From IMG/VR virus record IMGVR_UViG_3300028275_000007: DNA of 64,000 nucleotides. One strand, given 5' to 3'. Positions within the stretch are counted from its first letter, which is position 1. The number at the start of each line of letters is the position of its first letter. The translations under genes and the position numbers were made by a program. Below the pieces are notes generated by a model. It searched no databases. It was given only the letters and a program-made list of their open reading frames with translations, and had not been told where the DNA came from. Source of the DNA: a virus (Duplodnaviria > Caudoviricetes). Below, piece after piece: positions 1 to 52,715 of this stretch.

Positions 1-357
1 TTCTTCAGCAAAATAATCTATCATAGGATGCTGTTTGTCTGTAGTTGGGCTATAGTCTATGAAACAGCCTGTGATCTTGTTTTTTCCTGCTATTACATCA
101 AAACCAAATATAGGAGCAGAGTTATGAATATGGGGGAAAATGCAACAATGCATCATCCATAGTCCTTTGGTTTCTCGAGCATCTACGACGTCAATATGAG
201 CACGACGATAAGAATCGGACCTCCAAACGCGATTAACCCACCCAGGCTGATTAAAACGATCCATTCCGGCCTCAAATATTTCAGTACCGGTCTCATCAAA
301 CTTTTGTTCAAGGAGATTTTGGACTTCAATTAAAGTATTCCAAACTTTACTGTCCAC
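1..357 (-). CDS. pcyX: Ferredoxin-dependent bilin reductase (PcyA/PcyX-like), truncated by window start; not in ORF track
   Basis: GTG start at 357, open to base 1: ...RAHIDVVDARETKGLWMMHCCIFPHIHNSAPIFGFDVIAGKNKITGCFIDYSP... matches FDBR motifs; overlaps the heme oxygenase stop. Confidence 0.75.
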   Translation of the reverse strand, partial: MDSKVWNTLIEVQNLLEQKFDETGTEIFEAGMDRFNQPGWVNRVWRSDSYRRAHIDVVDARETKGLWMMHCCIFPHIHNSAPIFGFDVIAGKNKITGCFIDYSPTTDKQHPMIDYFAEE

Positions 358-891
358 GATAAAGATCTCGCATCATTTTAATAGCAAATTCAAATGCTAC
401 ACGAGCTTCATCTCCAAGGTCGTCAGTTAATGTTGCACGAATAGCACCCTTCATATCATCAGCATTATCAAAGTCGTAAAACTTGCCACTGCTGATATGT
501 GCTACTTGTTTTTTAATGATTTGACCGCCGAATAGGTCGCCCATATGGCGGCAGTATAGATGCGCTTTAACCAAATGTTTACGTTCTGGTCATTGCCTAG
601 TTTATGTAGATATGCCTGATACTCTAGAGTAGCAGGTGTTAGATAACAATATGTACCGTCATCTAATTCTTGAAAGTCTGCGTGAATAGCACGTAGACGA
701 GGTAAATCTGGCATTGTGTCAAGAAACCCTTGACGCTTACAATACCATTCGATAGGATCATAGACTGCTAACAAATTATATAGATAGTTTCTATAATCTT
801 CTTTTTCAATTTTTCCGCTAAGTAACATCTTAGCAAACGTTGTTGTTTCTGCTTCGTGATGCAGATCTTTTGTAATCTCTCTTAGACTCAT
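347..891 (-). pseudogene. hemO: Heme oxygenase split by a 1-nt frameshift near 588-590 (assembly error or real lesion)
   Basis: The N-part MSLREITKDLHHEAE... and C-part ...AHLYCRHMGDLFGGQIIKK... are in different frames; adding one base (GAC CAG AAC to GAC CCA GAA C) gives a continuous 181-aa reading ...DPERKHLVKAHLYCRHMGD. Confidence 0.8.
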
Positions 892-1187
892 TCTTGTTCC
901 ACTGTTATGCGTAAAGGTGATCCGTTTTGACGGGCAATGCCTGTTGCTTCAATACCCTTTTGTTCGGCAATTTCAAAAGGATAAATCCCCGCAATTCCGC
1001 TCCCTGATTCGTGGATTTCTAAAGTGATATCTTTGGCTTTTGATTCAGTGTGTTTAAAAATGCCAGTTAACAAATCTATCACTAATTCCATAGGAGTCTG
1101 ATCATCATTTAAAAACACAACCTTCCACAATTTTGGTGGTTGCAATGATACAACGACTTTTTCTTCTACTACGGTTTCTGTTGACAT
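888..1187 (-). CDS. clpS: ATP-dependent Clp protease adaptor ClpS
   Basis: PKLWKVVFLNDDQTPMELVIDLL...EIHESGSGIAGIYPFEIAEQK motif. Confidence 0.92.
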   Translation of the reverse strand: MSTETVVEEKVVVSLQPPKLWKVVFLNDDQTPMELVIDLLTGIFKHTESKAKDITLEIHESGSGIAGIYPFEIAEQKGIEATGIARQNGSPLRITVEQE

Positions 1188-1220
1188 TATAACTCCTACT
1201 TCTCTTATACGTTATTTAAC

Positions 1221-1744: not shown

Positions 1745-3637
1745 TTAGTCGGCTTTCTTCTCTGTGAAGGTAGCATCAACTACATCATCTTCTGCAGACT
1801 GAGGTTGAGCTTGAGCTTGGTCCTTAGCCTGACGTTTCTGTAGCAATACTGACATCGACGGTACAATTTTTTCCAGTGCAGATTTAATATCTTCTACGCT
1901 GTCGCCTTTTGTAGCGGTTTCAATATCAGCAAGTGCTTTTTCAATATCTGAAATCTCTGTGTCTGTCAATTCACTGCGGAACTCTTCAAGATCTTTCTTA
2001 ACTTCGTGTACTTGTGCTTCGGCTGAGTTACGAGTATCGATGAGTTCACGTGCTTTCTTATCTGCTTCTGCATTAAGCTCTGCATCTTTGATCATTTGTT
2101 GAATCTCAGATTCACTTAAACCAGAATTAGATTTAATTGTAATTTTGTTTTCTTTACCAGTGTTCTTATCTTTGGCACTGATGTGCATAATGCCGTTGGC
2201 ATCGATGTCAAAGGTAACTTCAATTTGTGGTTGTCCTCTACGTGCAGGAGCAATGCCGTCAAGTTTGAATTCACCTAGCAATTTATTATATTGTACTAGT
2301 TCACGTTCACCTTGGAAAACTTTGATATCTACTGCAGGCTGATTATCTTCAGCTGTAGAAAATACTTGTTGTCCCTTAGTTGGAATTGTGGTGTTCTTTT
2401 GAATAATCTTGGTAAACACACCGCCCATTGTTTCAATACCAAGTGACAGAGGAGTAACGTCTAGCAATAGAACGTCTTTACGATCGCCACCAAGAACAGC
2501 GCCTTGAATAGCAGCACCGACAGCAACTGCTTCGTCTGGGTTAACATCTTTACGTGGTGCTTTGCCAAATAACTTTTCTACTTCTTCTTGAACCTTAGGC
2601 ATACGTGTCTGACCACCGACTAAGATAACTTCCTCAATATCTGAGGCACTTACACCTGCATCTTGCATAGCAGTACGGCACGGTGCTAATGAACGATTAA
2701 TCAAATCTTCTACAAGTGCTTCTAGTTTAGCACGAGTAATTTTAATGTTCATATGCTTAGGACCATTAGCATCTGCTGTAATGTAAGGCAAGTTAACATC
2801 TGTGCTAGCAGAGCTAGACAGTTCAATCTTTGCTTTTTCAGCAGATTCTTTTAGACGTTGTAGAGCAAGCATATCTTTCTTTAGATCAACACCTTGTTCT
2901 TTCTTAAATTCATCAACCAAGTAATCCATAATACGTTGGTCAAAGTCTTCACCACCCAAGAAGGTGTCGCCGTTGGTGGACAACACTTCAATTTGTTTGT
3001 CACCGTCAACATCTGCAATTTCGATAATACTTACGTCAAATGTACCACCACCTAGGTCGTAGACTGCGATCTTGCGATCTTTCTTGTCTTGTTTGTCTAC
3101 ACCATATGCTAGTGCAGCCGCTGTTGGTTCGTTAATGATACGCAGTACTTCTAAACCTGCAATAGCACCAGCATCTTTTGTTGCCTGACGCTGACTGTCA
3201 TTGAAATAAGCAGGAACTGTGATAACTGCTTGTGTAACAGGCTCGCCTAAATAATCTTCGGCAGTTTTCTTCATCTTACGAAGTACTTCTGCTGAAATTT
3301 GTGGAGGTGCTAATTCTTTGCCTTGTGCCTTAACCCACGCATCACCGTTTTTGGCTTCGTAGATTTCGTATGGCATTAGGTCAAGATCTTTTTGTACAGC
3401 CTGTTCTTTGAACTTACGTCCAATTAAACGCTTGGCTGCATAAACTGTATTTTTTGGGTTTGTAACTGCTTGACGCTTTGCTGAAGCGCCAACAATAATT
3501 TCGTCGGGTGTATAGGCAACAATACTAGGAGTAGTGCGAGCACCTTCTGAATTTTCAATAACTTTGGAAGTTCCGTTCTCGATAACAGCCACGCAAGAAT
3601 TGGTGGTGCCGAGGTCAATACCGATGATCTTAGACAT
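1745..3637 (-). CDS. dnaK: Chaperone DnaK (Hsp70)
   Basis: [40 protein letters not shown] motifs; 630 aa. Confidence 0.98.
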
Positions 3638-39772: not shown

Positions 39773-40981
39773 TTAGTGGAACTGATCTGCCTCTGTGCTG
39801 GACTTATTAGCAACTGTTGATGTAGCACCAACTGCTTCACTAATCAAATCAAAGTAACCAACGCCAACTTCACGTTGATGTTTAACTGTTGTAAAGCCAC
39901 GAGCCTGTGCTTCAAACTCACGCTGTTGCATTTCTGAATACCCAGCCATACCACGTTGTTTATAGGCTTCTGCTAATTCAAATGTAGCAAGGTTAACTGA
40001 ATGGAATCCTGCTAGTGTAATGAACTGAAACTTATAGCCTAACGCACCTAATTCACGTTGGAATGTTTCACATTCTTCAATGCTTAAAAACTTTTGCCAA
40101 TTAAAACTAGGACTGCAATTATAAGCAAGCATTTGATCAGGATACTGGGCACGGATCGCTTCAGCAAACTTTCTAGCCTGTGCGATATCAGGTGTGCTAG
40201 TTTCGAACCAAAGGAGATCAGCGTAAGGGGCATAAGCAAGACCTCTGCTAATACAAGCATCAAGCCCGTTTTTAAATTTGTAAAAGCCTTCGTCAGTGCG
40301 TTCATCAATAATAAAGTCCTTGTCCAATGGATCGTGATTGCTGGTAATAAGTGTAGCAGACTCTGCGTCGGTACGTGCCATAATAACTGTTTCTACTCCT
40401 GCTACATCGCTAGCAAGACGTGCGGCCTGTAGGTTACGAATAGCTTGGCTAGTGGGAATTAAAACCTTACCGCCTAAGTGTCCACATTTCTTTTCGCTAG
40501 ATAGTTGATCTTCAAAGTGTACGCCTGCGGCGCCTGCTTCGATCATAGCCATCATAAGTTCATATGCGTTTAATGCGCCACCAAAACCTGCTTCTGCGTC
40601 AGCTACAATTGGCAAGAAATAATCTGTTGTTAAATTGCCTTCACTGTGTTCGATTTGATCGGCACGACGGAACGCATTATTGATTTGCTTAACGATTGTG
40701 GGCACTGAATTTACTGGATATAAACTTTGATCAGGATATGTTTGTCCTGCTGTATTTGCGGCTGCGGCCACTTGCCAGCCTGATAGATAAATTGCTTTGA
40801 GTCCTGCTTTGGCGTGTTGTACGGCTTGTTGGCCGCTGTACGCTCCTAGCGTGTTAACGTATGGTTCTGTTGCTAGTAACTCACGTAGTTTGGTTGCACC
40901 ACGTTTGGCTAAAGTATGCTCAATTTGTAATGAGCCTTGTAACTTGCGGACTGTGTCTTGTGTGTAGTTGCGCTTCTTCAT
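39773..40981 (-). CDS. aceA: Isocitrate lyase
   Basis: [35 protein letters not shown]. Confidence 0.96.
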
Positions 40982-41085
40982 TTGGTTCTCCTTAAAAGCC
41001 TAGTATTTATGGCTCTTCTAGAGGACTTGACAAAATCATTATCTGAGTATATAATATTAGAGTAAAATAATAGATTGGACATACA

Positions 41086-46002: not shown

Positions 46003-47334
46003 TTAATAAATCTCTCGCCATTGAAAGCCAACTCCAACATTTGTACTTTGTGCTCCGAGATTAGTTGCCACTACTACATATATCTCGCTGTCGGAACTAT
46101 CATAGTTTTGTATAATATAATTCTTTTTGGCTGAACTAGGGATGTTTGCTGCCGGTGCTCCGCCAGCCTTTTGACTTCCTTGTGTGCTGGCTCCAACAAA
46201 TCCGTTATCAAGTTCATCGCCGTCTGTAAATGCTGTACAGGTAGCGTTGTATTGTACACCACTGTCATCATCAACATCGACCCAAGTTGAACCTGTTAAC
46301 TGTGATTGAGCTGGTAATTTAATTAAACGCCATTTAATATTCTCGCCGTCGCTGAATACATTTATATTACCTGCGCGAACTATCATACGGTTAGCATAGG
46401 TTTTAAAGGTTGTCTTTAGTCTAATGGCTAAGACTGGCAATGTAGCCCCTGAAGCTAATGCTCTTAGGCTAGGACTACTCACAGCCCAATCGGTACCTGC
46501 TTCTACATAGCCGCCTTCTGATGCCACAGTAGAGCAAATCTGATCAAAGTACGCACCTGTGGTAGTGCCTGTGTTTACAATCTCACAGCGTACAGGCAAG
46601 TTTGGTGTACTCATATAAACTGTGGTTAAACTATTTGAATGATGAAATTGATGACAGGGAATAAAGGCACCTTCGTGTACAAATCCTACAGTAACTGATC
46701 CTACACCTAGCCATTGGAATTCTATAAATGATAGTTGTGTCTTAGTAATATCTATATCAAATGTACTTCCGCCTGTTCCGTCACATTTATCAATATTCCA
46801 CTCTGATTGTGTCTTACGATTTTCTACAGGTGCGCCAGATGTGTATGTTCTTATTACCCAACTTAGTGTACCGTCTCCTGCTTGTTCAAAGTATATACCA
46901 TTGTTGTCATCAAAGTAACCTGTGCGTTTTGTAACATTAGTAGTAGCCGCATAGAAGTTAAAACTTGAAAGTATCTGCTGACTTTTGCCTGGCATATAGT
47001 GATGATAGAACTTAGTCTGATGAACAACACGACTAGCAGAGTTGCTGGTAGTTGTTAGTCTAGCACAGGCTTTGTTTGATTGAAATTCTACAGTTCCACC
47101 GTTCACTGTGTAGTCAATGAAGTTAGGATCTAGTCCGTATAAGTGTTTGTAGTCTCCTAGAGTAAATGGCTCGCTCATACGTATGCGGCCGAACGCATCT
47201 GTCTGTCCTACTTTGTTAGTGGTTCTTAGTGTAGGCTGTCCTAACTGATTGTACTCCATAACCAAGTGAAGATCAGCAAGGTTAGGTTCCCAAGGATGTT
47301 CGTAGTTAGTGCTATTAGGATTTAAGATCGGCAT
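46003..47334 (-). CDS. Virion structural protein (beta-rich)
   Basis: 443 aa, T/G/S/N-rich, in late cluster. Confidence 0.6.
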   Translation of the reverse strand: MPILNPNSTNYEHPWEPNLADLHLVMEYNQLGQPTLRTTNKVGQTDAFGRIRMSEPFTLGDYKHLYGLDPNFIDYTVNGGTVEFQSNKACARLTTTSNSASRVVHQTKFYHHYMPGKSQQILSSFNFYAATTNVTKRTGYFDDNNGIYFEQAGDGTLSWVIRTYTSGAPVENRKTQSEWNIDKCDGTGGSTFDIDITKTQLSFIEFQWLGVGSVTVGFVHEGAFIPCHQFHHSNSLTTVYMSTPNLPVRCEIVNTGTTTGAYFDQICSTVASEGGYVEAGTDWAVSSPSLRALASGATLPVLAIRLKTTFKTYANRMIVRAGNINVFSDGENIKWRLIKLPAQSQLTGSTWVDVDDDSGVQYNATCTAFTDGDELDNGFVGASTQGSQKAGGAPAANIPSSAKKNYIIQNYDSSDSEIYVVVATNLGAQSTNVGVGFQWREIY

Positions 47335-47337
47335 ATG

Positions 47338-47562
47338 TTACGCCCAAGGTCTGCCAGCAATGAGCCCGCCTACGTTGGCATTATCTTCAATAGTATTATC
47401 TGCTTTATATTTTGTAGGCAATTGAGTAATGTCTGCTGTTGTATCAGAATAACGTCCCGGTTCAACTGCATTACGATCTGCTCGATCCTGTCCAGCTAAT
47501 GCTAATTTAGCTTCTTGTCTTAATTTCTTATTGGCTAGAGTTGAGATTCCGTTAGCTGACAT
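47338..47562 (-). CDS. Hypothetical protein
   Basis: MSANGISTL...LIAGRPW. Confidence 0.7.
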   Translation of the reverse strand: MSANGISTLANKKLRQEAKLALAGQDRADRNAVEPGRYSDTTADITQLPTKYKADNTIEDNANVGGLIAGRPWA

Positions 47563-47969
47563 TATGGTCTATCCTTGCTTGGGTAAATTCTAAATGAGTT
47601 ACCTCTAATATCTTCTGGCTCTTTCGTACCCTGCCATTGGTCGGCACCTGCATCCTTAGTAACTGCATCAATGCCAGCATATTGTTCTTGTGGCTCTGTG
47701 CTAATAGTCTGCTGATTGGCCATATCAACAATCTGCCTAAATCTTTTAATATCGTTATCAGCATACCCAGTTTCTTCTTTAGCTGGTTTGCCCTGTTTCT
47801 GCATAAATGAAACAATGCTGTCATATGCGTCCATTGTTACAGGGCCCTCTTGCGATAATTTAGTTACAATTTCTGCTACATCGTGTAGATCAGCATCCTG
47901 TTTGACATCTTCGCGAGCTAATTCTAATAATCTAATAAAAAGAGGAACGTCTAACTGTACAATATCCAT
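47562..47969 (-). CDS. Hypothetical late protein
   Basis: [16 protein letters not shown] motif; TAAATA upstream. Confidence 0.7.
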
Positions 47970-48011
47970 TTGATAATCTCCGATCTAATATTTAGCGTAA
48001 ATACAGTTACT

Positions 48012-49220
48012 ATGATAAACAAAGAACCCTTCAAACATTTAATAAAAGATCTAAAATCTAACGGAAAATATCGTGTGTTTAACGACATTCTTCGTGAAAA
48101 CGGCAAGTTTCCACAGGCTATTTGGTACGGACCGTATGCCATTAAAAATATAGTTAATTGGTGTTCTAATGATTATTTAGGTATGGGTCAATCTAAAGTT
48201 GTTTTAGATGCTATGCACACAGCTCTAGATATGACTGGTGCTGGTTCGGGAGGTACTCGTAATATTGGCGGCACTAGCCACTATCACGTTGCTCTAGAAC
48301 ACGAACTAGCAAAATTACATAATAAAGCCAGTGCTCTTTTGTTTAGCTCTGCGTATGTTGCCAACGAATGGACATTGATTGCTCTAAGTAAGATCATTCC
48401 TAATATACATTTTGTCAGCGACGAAAATAATCATAACAGTTTAATCATAGGTATGAGTCATAGTCGTGCTTCTAAGACTGTGTTCAAACACAACGATCTA
48501 CAACATTTAGAAGATATACTGTGTTCAGTAAAGTTAGCTGGTCAGACTCCGTGTATTGTGTTTGAAAGTGTTTACTCAATGGACGGAGATGTAGGGGAGA
48601 TAAAAGGAATCTGTGATCTAGCAGACAAGTATGAAGCAATCACTTATATTGATGAAGTACACGCGGTAGGGCTATACGGAACGCACGGTGGCGGCAAAGT
48701 TGAAGAGCTAGGCCTTGAACACCGAATTGATATAATCAATGGAACTCTAGGCAAGGCGTATGGTGTCCAAGGTGGCTATATAGCTGCCGATGCTGATGTA
48801 ATTGATGCTATTCGTTCAGTGGCAGCTGGATTTATCTTTACTACAAGTCTAAGTCCTGTTACCTGTGCAGGTGCTCTTGCTGCTGTCAAATACCTAAAAG
48901 AGCACAACGAGATTCGTGAGAAACATCAAGAACGTGCTCGCAAACTAAAACATAGATTGAACAATAACGGTATTCCAGTTATGGAATGTTCTACTACTCA
49001 CATAGTGCCGGTACTGATAGGGGAAGCTAAGAAGTGTAAGGCCATTAGCGATGACCTACTCAACGAACATAATATCTATGTGCAGCCTATTAATTATCCA
49101 ACTGTCGATGTAGGCACAGAACGACTACGGTTTGCACCTACACCGTTTCACGATGACGGAATGATTGAAGACTTAATCGCTGCTCTCAAAGAAAGTTTTA
49201 GTAAATTTGATTTGAAGTAA
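48012..49220 (+). CDS. hemA: 5-aminolevulinate synthase (Shemin/C4 pathway)
   Basis: [63 protein letters not shown]. Confidence 0.93.
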
Positions 49221-50064
49221 GGAATGTAAAATACTTTTTAATTCCTTCCCAAGGTTCTAAAAACAAATCTGTCTTTACACCTGCTTGTTCCAATGCTCGA
49301 GTATCGGCCTTTGTATCTGTTTGATACTGTGCTTTTAGATCGTCGGGCATAGGAATATAAACTTTACTACCTTTAGAAGATTCGTGAATAACTATGTTTG
49401 CGATACTTTCAAAGTCAACACTTTCGCCTGTGCCTAGGTCATAGACACCCGGTTGATAATTCTGTATAAAGTGATAGATTGTACTGGCAACATCTTCTAC
49501 CCAGATAAAGTCTCTTTTAAATTGTTTGCTGTTTTCAAATATCTTTATAACTTCTTCTTTTTGAAGTTGATTGTACCAATGGTATATTGTACTGGCCATA
49601 CGGCCCTTATGATATTCGTTTGGTCCATAGACATTAAACAATCTTAGAACAACTCCGTTGATTTCATTTTCGCTTACCTGCTTGCTAAATGCATAATGAT
49701 TTAGTGGGCCGTTACCGTTACCGTAGACTGCTGCTGAACTTGTAAAGATAAACGGGATATTGTTTTCAGAACAAAAATGATTCCAACGGCGTGTGCTCAA
49801 CACGTTGGTATTATAAAGACTTTTCCAATCACGCTGTAGTGTACTAGAGTCTGCACCTATGTGTATGACTGCTTCAATCGTATCTGAGTCACTGGGCATT
49901 TCATCTGTAGAGTGTAGAGATATGTATTTTTTATTTGTTAAATTTTTATATTGATCAGCTGTTGGCAAATCGTCAAACAATACAATATCATCCCTTCCTT
50001 GTTTGTTTAGGTAACCTAATACCACACTACCGATAAATCCGCCTGCACCAGTTAATATAATCAT
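49198..50064 (-). CDS. hldD: ADP-L-glycero-D-manno-heptose 6-epimerase-like
   Basis: [47 protein letters not shown]. Confidence 0.88.
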
Positions 50065-50819
50065 AATATTTCTTCCATAGTAGGAGCATAGCAGCCAACG
50101 TGCTGAACTGTAACGGCAGCAGCCTGATTAGCAAAGTCCATTGCTTGTTTGATGTCTTTGGTATGTAGAAAGTTATAGACTAGTGCAGCAAGGAATGTAT
50201 CTCCTGCTCCCGTAACATCAACAACTTCAACCTTTGGTGCTTTAGAGGTATACTCGTGATGCACAGCTTCTGCACCTTTGCTGCCGCGTGTGACAATTAA
50301 CCCACTACATTCACTTTTAATTTTGCTGTGTTCTAATTCATTGATCTTAACCCACGCTCCTTGCATACGCTCTAGGTCAGTCTTCTTGGTATCGATGAAC
50401 ACAGGAATTCTAGTAGCGATAGCTTCTTCTATAACATCGTAAGTTATTGTGCCTTTATTGTAATCACTGATAACAATAGCATCGTAGACCTTAGGAATAG
50501 CTGTTTCAAACGTCAACGGGTCAGATACGATGTCATTGTCAATGCGTACAATCTGTTGTTTGCTACGAGCATCGATTAGTCTAGTCTTGGTGCTGGTTTC
50601 ACCGAACAGATAGTTTACTTCGCAGCCTAGCGACTCTAGATTGTTAAACACATTGCCTGCCATACCATCACGTTCTTCTACATAAGTAGGAACGAACACA
50701 GGTACTGGAGCTTCAGGACTTAATCGATCAATTGTACCGTACTGATAGATGTCTTTGCAATTATCGCCTATCAATAATATCTTGAATTGTTTTTGTTGTT
50801 GAGTGTTCTGTTCTGTCAT
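50061..50819 (-). CDS. Heptose-7-phosphate kinase (RfaE/HldE domain I, PfkB family)
   Basis: DRLSPEAPVPV, SDYNKG, DVTGAGDTF. Confidence 0.9.
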   Translation of the reverse strand: MTEQNTQQQKQFKILLIGDNCKDIYQYGTIDRLSPEAPVPVFVPTYVEERDGMAGNVFNNLESLGCEVNYLFGETSTKTRLIDARSKQQIVRIDNDIVSDPLTFETAIPKVYDAIVISDYNKGTITYDVIEEAIATRIPVFIDTKKTDLERMQGAWVKINELEHSKIKSECSGLIVTRGSKGAEAVHHEYTSKAPKVEVVDVTGAGDTFLAALVYNFLHTKDIKQAMDFANQAAAVTVQHVGCYAPTMEEIL

Positions 50820-51162
50820 AAAACATTATATCTTTACAGTATTCTGATCCAATGATTGGTTTGTCTTTATAGTCACTGCCTTTGACCATAATATCCGGGC
50901 TATAGTTTTTAATAAGTTCTGCCAGTTCGTTGTCGGTGTCAAATATCCTAACACGGTCCACTGACTTCAAAGCAAACAACATACTAGCTCTATCGTATTC
51001 ATTATTGATTGGCCGACTTGGACCTTTGAGCCGTCGAACTCTTTGATCGCTGTCAATTAAAACATAAACATAAGCATCAGGGAAGCCCTTTGCAAATTCT
51101 AATAGTTTAATGTGTCCGATGTGTAATATATCAAAAGTTCCATTTACAATAATTTTTTTCAT
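50761..51162 (-). CDS. Heptose-1-phosphate nucleotidyltransferase (RfaE/HldE domain II)
   Basis: NGTFDILHIGH, LKGPSRPIN, VKGSDY, STT. Confidence 0.9.
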   Translation of the reverse strand: MKKIIVNGTFDILHIGHIKLLEFAKGFPDAYVYVLIDSDQRVRRLKGPSRPINNEYDRASMLFALKSVDRVRIFDTDNELAELIKNYSPDIMVKGSDYKDKPIIGSEYCKDIMFYDRTEHSTTKTIQDIIDRR

Positions 51163-51767
51163 GGTAAACTTTCTACGAATTGTTCAAGATTATCAAAAAT
51201 TAAAACTTTTGGTTTAATCTTTCTATATGTAAACTTGTTTAGTTCTTTTTCTGTTTCTTCACCGTAACCAGTTCTAACCAACACAGGTCTAGCTCCAATG
51301 TTTATTGCAGCCTTAAGGTCTTTCATTTTATCGCCAACGTAATAACCGCCTTTGAATTTCATATCTGGTACTTCTTTCTCACATCGTTTGAACATACCAG
51401 TGTTGGGTTTTGCAAACGGATCGTCTTTGCGACTAGAAGCAGAATAATACAATGCGTCAATACTGAAACAGCCTGCGGCACCTAACAGTTCAAACATATG
51501 AGTGTGTACTGTTTCAACATCTTCTTGAGTGTAGATGCCTTTTTCAATACCACCTTGGTCTGAGATGATTGCAATTTTATAACCTTTGCGTCTAAGAGTA
51601 GCAATAGCATCAATGCTTCCTGGGATAGGATCAAAGTCTTCTACCTTGTAGCAATAGGTACCTAGATCACGATTGATAACTCCGTCACGATCTAAGCCCA
51701 CTACACATTTTGTTCTAAACTCTCCGCCTGACCAAGAAATCTTAGGCTGGTTTGTCTGTTGTTCCAT
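51159..51767 (-). CDS. gmhB: D,D-heptose 1,7-bisphosphate phosphatase
   Basis: LDRDGVIN, KPNTGMF, VGDKMKDLKAA..GARPVLVRTGYG. Confidence 0.9.
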   Translation of the reverse strand: MEQQTNQPKISWSGGEFRTKCVVGLDRDGVINRDLGTYCYKVEDFDPIPGSIDAIATLRRKGYKIAIISDQGGIEKGIYTQEDVETVHTHMFELLGAAGCFSIDALYYSASSRKDDPFAKPNTGMFKRCEKEVPDMKFKGGYYVGDKMKDLKAAINIGARPVLVRTGYGEETEKELNKFTYRKIKPKVLIFDNLEQFVESLP

Positions 51768-52128
51768 TCTGGCTGTCTCCGGGGATAATTCTATAGTTAT
51801 CCTCTACGCTGTCTGCTGTACTCACTTCAAAGATCATAGAGTTAGGTTGAAGAGCAATTAGTTGATGCGGCATCATTGGAGGATTATGCCAGGTTTCGCC
51901 TTCGTTAAGAATCTTTTCAACGTAGGTTGCCGTTTTTGTATCGCAGTAAACTAACCTAAACTTGCCTGCGTTAACAAACCAAGTTTCTTCTTTTTCTTTG
52001 TGAAAGTGCATACTAAACTTTGCACCTTCACGTTCGAATACCATAATCTTTCCGCAGTATTTGTCGTTGGTGGCCCAAATAATTTCGTAGCCCCAACCCT
52101 TGTCTACTTTACCTGTTAATCTTGTCAT
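51742..52128 (-). CDS. Cupin (sugar-phosphate isomerase-like)
   Basis: [28 protein letters not shown]. Confidence 0.85.
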
Positions 52129-52715
52129 GGTCGCTTCTCAATAACTTTATCGATAAGTCCGTACTCTAGAGCTTCTTCTGCACTCATAAACTTATCACGA
52201 TCCATATCGCGTTCGAAGTCTTGGTAGGTCTTACCTTTGGTGTTGTGCTTAACATATAGTTCTGTTAAACGTTTCTTAATATGCATAATTTCTTTGTATG
52301 AAATCTCAATGTCAGATGCCATACCTCTCGCACCACCCGATGGTTGATGGATCATATGACGAGCATTTGGCAGCATAAAACGTTTGCCTGCTGCTCCTGC
52401 ATTGGCAAGGAACGAGCCCATTGAACAGGCCTGTCCCATTACATAGGTTGCTACATCGCATTTAATAAATTGCATAGTATCATAAATGCTTAGGCCTGCT
52501 GTGACTACACCGCCTGGACTATTAATAAACAAATTGATATCTTTATTTGGATCTTCTGATTCTAAAAACAATAACTGAGATACAATCAAATTAGCCATAT
52601 GGTCTTCTACAGGACCGTTTAGCATAATAATACGCTCGCGAAGCAAACGACTGTAAATGTCATAGGCTCGTTCGCCTTTGGATGTAGACTCAATAACTAC
52701 TGGTACCAAACTCAT
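52125..52715 (-). CDS. clpP: ATP-dependent Clp protease proteolytic subunit
   Basis: [19 protein letters not shown]-like, QACSMGS, MIHQP, DRD. Confidence 0.96.

Follow-up and report, generated by a model that had tools for sequence, protein, structure and literature searches.

Organization of the valaS locus

The sequence analyzed here, referred to as the window, is a 64,000-nucleotide stretch of the IMG/VR record IMGVR_UViG_3300028275_000007, which derives from an uncultured T4-like river phage and carries a gene for 5-aminolevulinate synthase (ALAS), designated valaS. The coordinates of this gene and of the associated features are collected in Table 1. The gene lies within an enclosing open frame at 47970-49220(+), and the alignment of its N-terminus with bacterial and published viral ALAS proteins supports the ATG at 48012 as the start codon. 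Both flanking genes are located on the minus strand, in agreement with the opposite orientation of valaS described in the initial annotation. The divergent upstream gene (47562-47969) is separated from the ATG by a gap of 42 nt in which no Shine-Dalgarno (SD) site for valaS was found, and the convergent downstream gene overlaps the end of valaS by 23 nt, with no terminator-like hairpin found between the two.

The virion structural protein encoded in the divergent operon matched phrog_1645 with 387 bits and is 50% identical to its annotated counterpart in cyanophage S-RIM32. On the other side, an operon of sugar-nucleotide genes at 49198-52128(-) converges on valaS and encodes an epimerase, a PfkB-type kinase, a cytidylyltransferase-like protein, a HAD phosphatase and a cupin. 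Elsewhere, the window encodes a full-length DnaK homologue (1745-3637, minus strand) with 66-70% identity to proteobacterial DnaK, the family of which, phrog_22485, is of unknown function in PHROGs.

Table 1. Features of the window discussed in the text (positions counted from the first nucleotide of the window).
Feature	Position	Strand	Evidence or remark
clpS-hemO-bilin reductase operon	1..1218	-	Pfam ClpS, Heme_oxygenase and Fe_bilin_red; TAAATA box at 1213-1218
Permuted (two-piece) tmRNA, Rfam betaproteobacterial type, tag ANDTRFALAA	17746..18134	-	RF01850, ARAGORN
Isocitrate lyase	39773..40981	-	Pfam ICL, 339 bits; TAAATA box at 41004-41009 plus SD
Divergent operon: proteins of 135 aa and 74 aa of unknown function, then 443-aa virion structural protein	46003..47969	-	phrog_1645
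Mirrored TAAATA box, for the divergent late operon	47989..47994	-	19-nt leader with GGAG
TAAATA late-type promoter box of valaS	47998..48003	+	Followed by 8 nt, CAGTTACT, then ATG; no SD site
valaS, 5-aminolevulinate synthase, 402 aa	48012..49220	+	TIGR01821, PDB 7x98/2bwn, catalytic residues
NAD-dependent sugar epimerase, convergent with valaS	49198..50064	-	

Identity of the encoded enzyme

The valaS product scored 577.1 bits against TIGR01821, the NCBIfam model for ALAS (cut-off 338.55), compared with at most 307 bits for the models of related enzymes, each of which remained below its own cut-off: 306.8 bits for Kbl (glycine C-acetyltransferase; cut-off 460), 304.5 bits for BioF (cut-off 426) and no more than 222 bits for the serine palmitoyltransferase (SPT) models. 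The top matches in the PDB were the bacterial ALAS structures 7x98 (E 5e-129) and 2bwn from R. capsulatus (E 1.4e-126), with the human and yeast enzymes next. In the alignment with 2bwn, which spans residues 11-392, the residues R21, N54, T83, N85, H142, D214, H217, K248 (the lysine that binds PLP) and R374 are identical in the valaS product (ALAS residue numbers follow R. capsulatus), and the catalytic residues are invariant across 79 phage copies of valaS. By family membership, the valaS product is a true ALAS, and all of its catalytic residues are present; both the initial call of an intact enzyme and its distinction from another class II aminotransferase were upheld.

The fold and the PLP motifs are common to the whole family, and Pfam recognized only the general Aminotran_1_2 domain, which would also suit another alpha-oxoamine synthase (Kbl, BioF or SPT). 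Such an enzyme, or host DNA joined to a phage contig by misassembly, is an extremely improbable source of the gene and was ruled out by the model scores, the viral contigs, the identity to cellular proteins and the conserved promoter. The residues that contact succinyl-CoA and glycine are retained, and valaS has virion genes on one side and sugar-pathway genes on the other, a placement that recurs, together with the phage promoter, on hundreds of viral contigs, while the best 80 matches in cellular genomes all have at most 59% identity.

The haem-regulatory His342 is replaced by Lys341 in the valaS product, and every one of the 79 phage copies has Lys or Arg at the equivalent position. No Cys was found in the last 15 residues of the valaS product, nor in those of 56 of the 79 phage copies. 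From its residues, this copy is predicted to have ALAS activity and to escape haem feedback.

A late-type promoter box next to the start codon

Late promoters of phage T4 consist of the sequence TATAAATA at -13 to -6, which is read by gp55 together with gp33 and the gp45 clamp, and they have no -35 element. At valaS, the late-type box comprises only the 6-nt core TAAATA (CGTAAATA) and covers no more than six of the eight positions of the T4 consensus. The initial annotation had placed valaS behind a late promoter with TAAATA 9 nt before the ATG, and the position of the box stands: the last base of the box is 9 nt from the A of the ATG, with 8 nt in between, and the box recurs at 77 of 79 related phage loci (51 distinct upstream sequences) with a spacing to the ATG of 5, 7 or 8 nt. 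None of the 79 loci has an SD-like site before valaS. Wherever the box is present (77 loci), it is preceded by a mirrored TATTTA at a distance of 1-6 nt. This arrangement holds while the divergent neighbour of valaS varies, with at least six different genes in this position among the relatives.

Across the window, TAAATA is depleted (43 sites versus 74.6 +/- 8.4 in shuffled sequences), and 25 of the 43 sites precede, by 2-26 nt, the start of a same-strand open reading frame of 50 aa or more. Given this depletion, the position of 25 sites before gene starts and the recurrence at 77 of 79 loci, the presence of the box at valaS is no coincidence. Two classes of spacing can be told apart, one of 19-26 nt, in most cases with a GGAG-type site, and one of 2-10 nt without such a site (13 genes), to which valaS belongs. 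Since the boxes of the short class are not accompanied by a ribosome-binding site, leaderless late mRNAs are predicted for these genes, and the valaS mRNA is likewise predicted to be late and nearly leaderless. Provided that the T4 rule (box at -13 to -6) holds, transcription of valaS would start at about position 48009, with a leader of 3 nt. Homologues of gp55, the late sigma factor of S-RIM32, were identified in the two most complete relatives (G001, E 7e-13; G002, E 2e-12), and none was found in the window itself.

A sigma-70-type match (TTGACA-18-AATAAT, 11 of 12 positions) was also observed at 47902-47931(+), inside the divergent gene and about 80 nt before valaS, and is the only strong match of this kind upstream of the gene. 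As a conserved promoter it was rejected, as only 7-9 of 12 positions match there in relatives that share this upstream gene, and the match in the window is probably due to chance.

Distribution among phages and origin of valaS

Relatives of valaS were found on 264 contigs in IMG/VR. A search of a protein database returned at least 8000 scored candidates, all with E values of 0.001 or lower, and the best 120 of these have at least 83% identity to the valaS product and come from contigs of up to 360 kb. In a collection of cultured phages, no nucleotide match to valaS was obtained, and the protein search gave only Kbl- or BioF-like matches with at most 35% identity that were mostly host contamination; ALAS is absent from the cultured phages in the collection searched. 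Additionally, in a library clustered at 50% identity, one cluster representative (84% identical) stands for the full-length members of the clade, four fragments with 61-72% identity are separate, and the next full-length matches have about 50-54% identity.

Among cellular genomes, the best 80 matches in GTDB (one genome per prokaryotic species) have 52-59% identity and, except for one acidobacterial MAG, are labeled as alphaproteobacterial or unresolved proteobacterial. The phylogeny of ALAS, which the initial annotation had proposed as a check, was computed by maximum likelihood from 86 rows, without Pelagibacterales and without the published viral AlaS (vAlaS) sequences of Wegner et al., and placed the 18 phage rows together in a single clade (SH-aLRT 100), which has a long stem (0.55) and is nested among alphaproteobacterial ALAS; the tree was obtained by a quick search under a simple model (LG+G4), and its deep branches are weak. 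That valaS is encoded on phage DNA follows from the virion structural operon at its flank, the 264 contigs in IMG/VR, the presence of gp55 in relatives and the phage late box. The gene is best explained as a phage auxiliary metabolic gene which, judging from the tree and the cellular matches, would be of alphaproteobacterial origin.

Haem-to-bilin genes in the window and in long relatives

The initial annotation had connected ALAS to a haem oxygenase and a bilin reductase in the same genome, and genes for both were confirmed by Pfam matches in the operon at the edge of the window, about 47 kb from valaS. The bilin reductase gene runs off this edge, clpS occupies positions 888-1187, and hemO (347-891, minus strand) is split into two frames (502-891 and 347-589) by a 1-nt deletion in a run of C near 589-590, as compared with the relative L164, in which hemO is intact. 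The frameshift reflects either a mistake in the assembly or a genuine loss of hemO function, and the haem-to-bilin step may thus be broken in this genome. Both hemO and the bilin reductase gene are intact in four of five long relatives, at a distance of 42-70 kb from valaS, and the hemO operon is preceded by TAAATA in the window and in three relatives. Searches of the five long relatives detected neither ALAD nor ferrochelatase. Since haem that is made and then opened yields no iron, the presence of ALAS, HemO and the reductase in the same genomes is most simply understood as a route to bilin, which we infer for this group.

Four of the five long relatives have open frames of about 750-3200 aa that contain repeats of a phycobiliprotein-like domain. 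The domains were recognized by their similarity to each other, and the Pfam Phycobilisome model matched these fibre domains of the relatives below its threshold, with 18.7-20.3 bits. In the relative G004, the gene at 43-2301 of contig L161 encodes a 752-aa protein with an N-terminal Mtd_N (tropism determinant) domain and a phycobiliprotein-like domain, and three other valaS phages have repeats of similar domains in frames of about 1800-3200 aa.

The suggestion that isocitrate lyase could support the succinate supply did not generalize. Its gene is present in the window and in two of five long relatives and is absent from the one that is 98% complete, and isocitrate lyase was rejected as a fixed partner of valaS. 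The record of cyanophage S-RIM32 (positions 49887-50477), which is the nearest cultured phage as judged from one virion protein, has annotations for a ferrochelatase and for a cobS-type 'porphyrin biosynthesis' gene; these tetrapyrrole genes differ from those in the window phage.

Clues to the host

The tmRNA is the only clue to the host in the window. Its best-fitting family in Rfam is beta_tmRNA (RF01850; 118.7 bits, gathering score 84), and the same tmRNA family was identified in four of five long valaS relatives, with differing tags. The window also encodes ClpS and, at 52125-52715, ClpP, so that, with the tmRNA, the phage carries a number of components for protein tagging and proteolysis.

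No psbA was found in the valaS relatives, from which it follows that the window phage is not a typical cyanophage. A cyanophage identity, as suggested by the match to S-RIM32, is unlikely, given the lack of psbA in the relatives and a tmRNA that is not of the cyanobacterial type. The initial annotation had assumed a betaproteobacterial host that uses the C5 route. The beta-type tmRNA in the window and in four of the five relatives speaks for this assumption, but the cultured phage Melnitz, which infects OM43, has an alpha-type ssrA (PMC9004378), which means that the tmRNA of a phage need not match its present host and can reflect a former one. The available evidence gives a faint indication of a host outside the Alphaproteobacteria, possibly a betaproteobacterium. 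Host predictions were not found in the supplementary material of Wegner et al. (2024) as far as it was accessible.

Proposed role of vAlaS and alternative explanations

The formation of ALA is the step that commits to tetrapyrrole synthesis, and it is normally repressed by haem. With a probability of about 0.8, we consider the best overall explanation to be that the locus encodes a vAlaS that is transcribed late, is free of feedback and feeds the haem pathway of the host toward bilin. The enzyme would condense glycine and succinyl-CoA into ALA, and its gene would be read late by a phage gp55-type sigma factor from a start that leaves a leader of about 0-3 nt. By escaping haem feedback, vAlaS would push ALA into the host's own ALA-to-haem enzymes, as the phage relatives have neither ALAD nor ferrochelatase. 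Much of the extra haem would then undergo ring opening by HemO and reduction by the bilin reductase, both encoded by the phage, and the net product in the valaS clade would be bilin rather than haem or iron.

Viral alaS genes are already known from contigs of phages from marine and fresh waters (Wegner et al. 2024, Nat Commun 15:8783; PMC11480375), where, according to the available text of that paper, they form a cassette with hemO and pcyA/X (hemO-pcyA/X-alaS), lie close to a pair of these two genes, or stand alone. A 2026 estuary study described viral alaS transcripts (PMC13390420). As an alternative to a bilin route, the extra ALA could mainly supply host haem proteins, such as respiratory cytochromes and catalase, and tetrapyrrole cofactors during host shut-off, with HemO and the reductase being unrelated to it or serving to recycle iron. 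This is the main proposal in the available text of Wegner et al. (PMC11480375), and the occurrence of valaS alone on some of the published contigs, as well as the broken hemO in the assembly of the window, would fit such a role. However, a late-type promoter back to back with virion genes fits a late need better than the early upkeep of energy metabolism, the genes valaS, hemO and reductase occur together in four of five long relatives, and no iron is gained from haem that is made and then reopened. We regard supply of haem proteins as a serious possibility, but one with the odds against it.

The initial annotation had favoured a different purpose, in which the host is a betaproteobacterium with the C5 route and valaS provides a bypass that does not depend on tRNA and would leave more tRNA-Glu for translation or withstand damage to tRNA. 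A hypothesis of this kind, that viral AlaS frees glutamyl-tRNA for translation in non-alphaproteobacterial hosts, has been published (PMC11480375, as given in its available text). The permuted beta-type tmRNA and the absence of psbA from the relatives, described above, are consistent with the bypass, and ALAS of the valaS type is otherwise alphaproteobacterial and would consequently be foreign to a betaproteobacterial host. Against this, a tmRNA may record a former host, as in Melnitz, and the published valaS phages have been linked to alpha- and gammaproteobacterial hosts (PMC11480375, same portion of text). The bypass is also compatible with vAlaS feeding a bilin route, and as the purpose of the gene we find it rather unlikely. 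Both the valaS gene and the idea that it spares tRNA-Glu are already known, and the call and the main inference of the initial annotation are, in light of Wegner et al. (2024), re-discoveries.

A more far-reaching extension of the bilin route, which we put forward as speculative and improbable in its full form, is a late phage pigment line: a feedback-free ALAS made from a leaderless late mRNA would load the haem pathway of the host with ALA, phage HemO and the reductase would convert the haem to bilin, and the bilin would be attached to the phycobiliprotein-like domains of the giant tail-fibre proteins, such that virions carry a chromophore. The host in such a scheme would be non-photosynthetic and probably betaproteobacterial.

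The takeover of the committed step of tetrapyrrole synthesis by phages is the general point that viral ALAS makes, and it was made and tested in 2024 (PMC11480375, as presented in the text available). What the valaS locus adds is modest, namely an apparently late and leaderless class of transcription and a position back to back with virion genes. The combination of valaS, hemO, bilin reductase and fibre domains that resemble bilin proteins bears on the question of why non-cyanobacterial phages make bilins, and it points to the virion itself.

Comparison with known systems

The published viral AlaS proteins are the closest known counterparts. They belong to the same enzyme family and cluster apart from bacterial ALAS, as does the phage clade described here, and the residues of haem feedback, His342 and Cys400, are lost in both (PMC11480375, available text). 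The alignment in that paper includes UViGs from lakes that have the N-terminal block of the window protein, and the shared setting is a freshwater T4-like phage with hemO and a bilin reductase elsewhere in its genome. The differences lie in the tested enzyme of phage CB_2, which rescues an E. coli ALA auxotroph but is more distant and has its PLP lysine at K250 instead of the K248 of the window copy, and in the three-gene cassette, whereas valaS in the window is about 47 kb away from hemO. A late-type box fused to the start codon, a beta-type tmRNA and phycobiliprotein-like fibre domains were not found in the available text of Wegner et al. (2024).

Compared with the ALAS of R. capsulatus (HemA; 2bwn), the PLP lysine K248 and the contacts to glycine and succinyl-CoA are identical. 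The phage copy differs in having Lys341 in place of His342 and no C-terminal Cys, and valaS is distinguished further by its phage promoter and by a long stem branch. The T4 late promoters resemble the boxes of the window in being A/T-rich, in having no -35 element and in preceding virion genes, with gp55 homologues in the relatives and a depletion of the box elsewhere in the window. In contrast to T4, the core in the window is shorter (TAAATA), and valaS and a dozen other genes of the window have the box 2-10 nt before the ATG and no ribosome-binding site.

The hemO-pcyA-alaS island of Bradyrhizobium sp. ORS278 likewise unites the three activities in one genome and makes bilin for a bilin-binding protein (PMC11480375, in the text available). 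This island is cellular and clustered and serves a phytochrome, while the genes in the window are viral and dispersed, and the sole candidate bilin acceptors observed in the valaS phages are the phycobiliprotein-like domains of giant fibre proteins.
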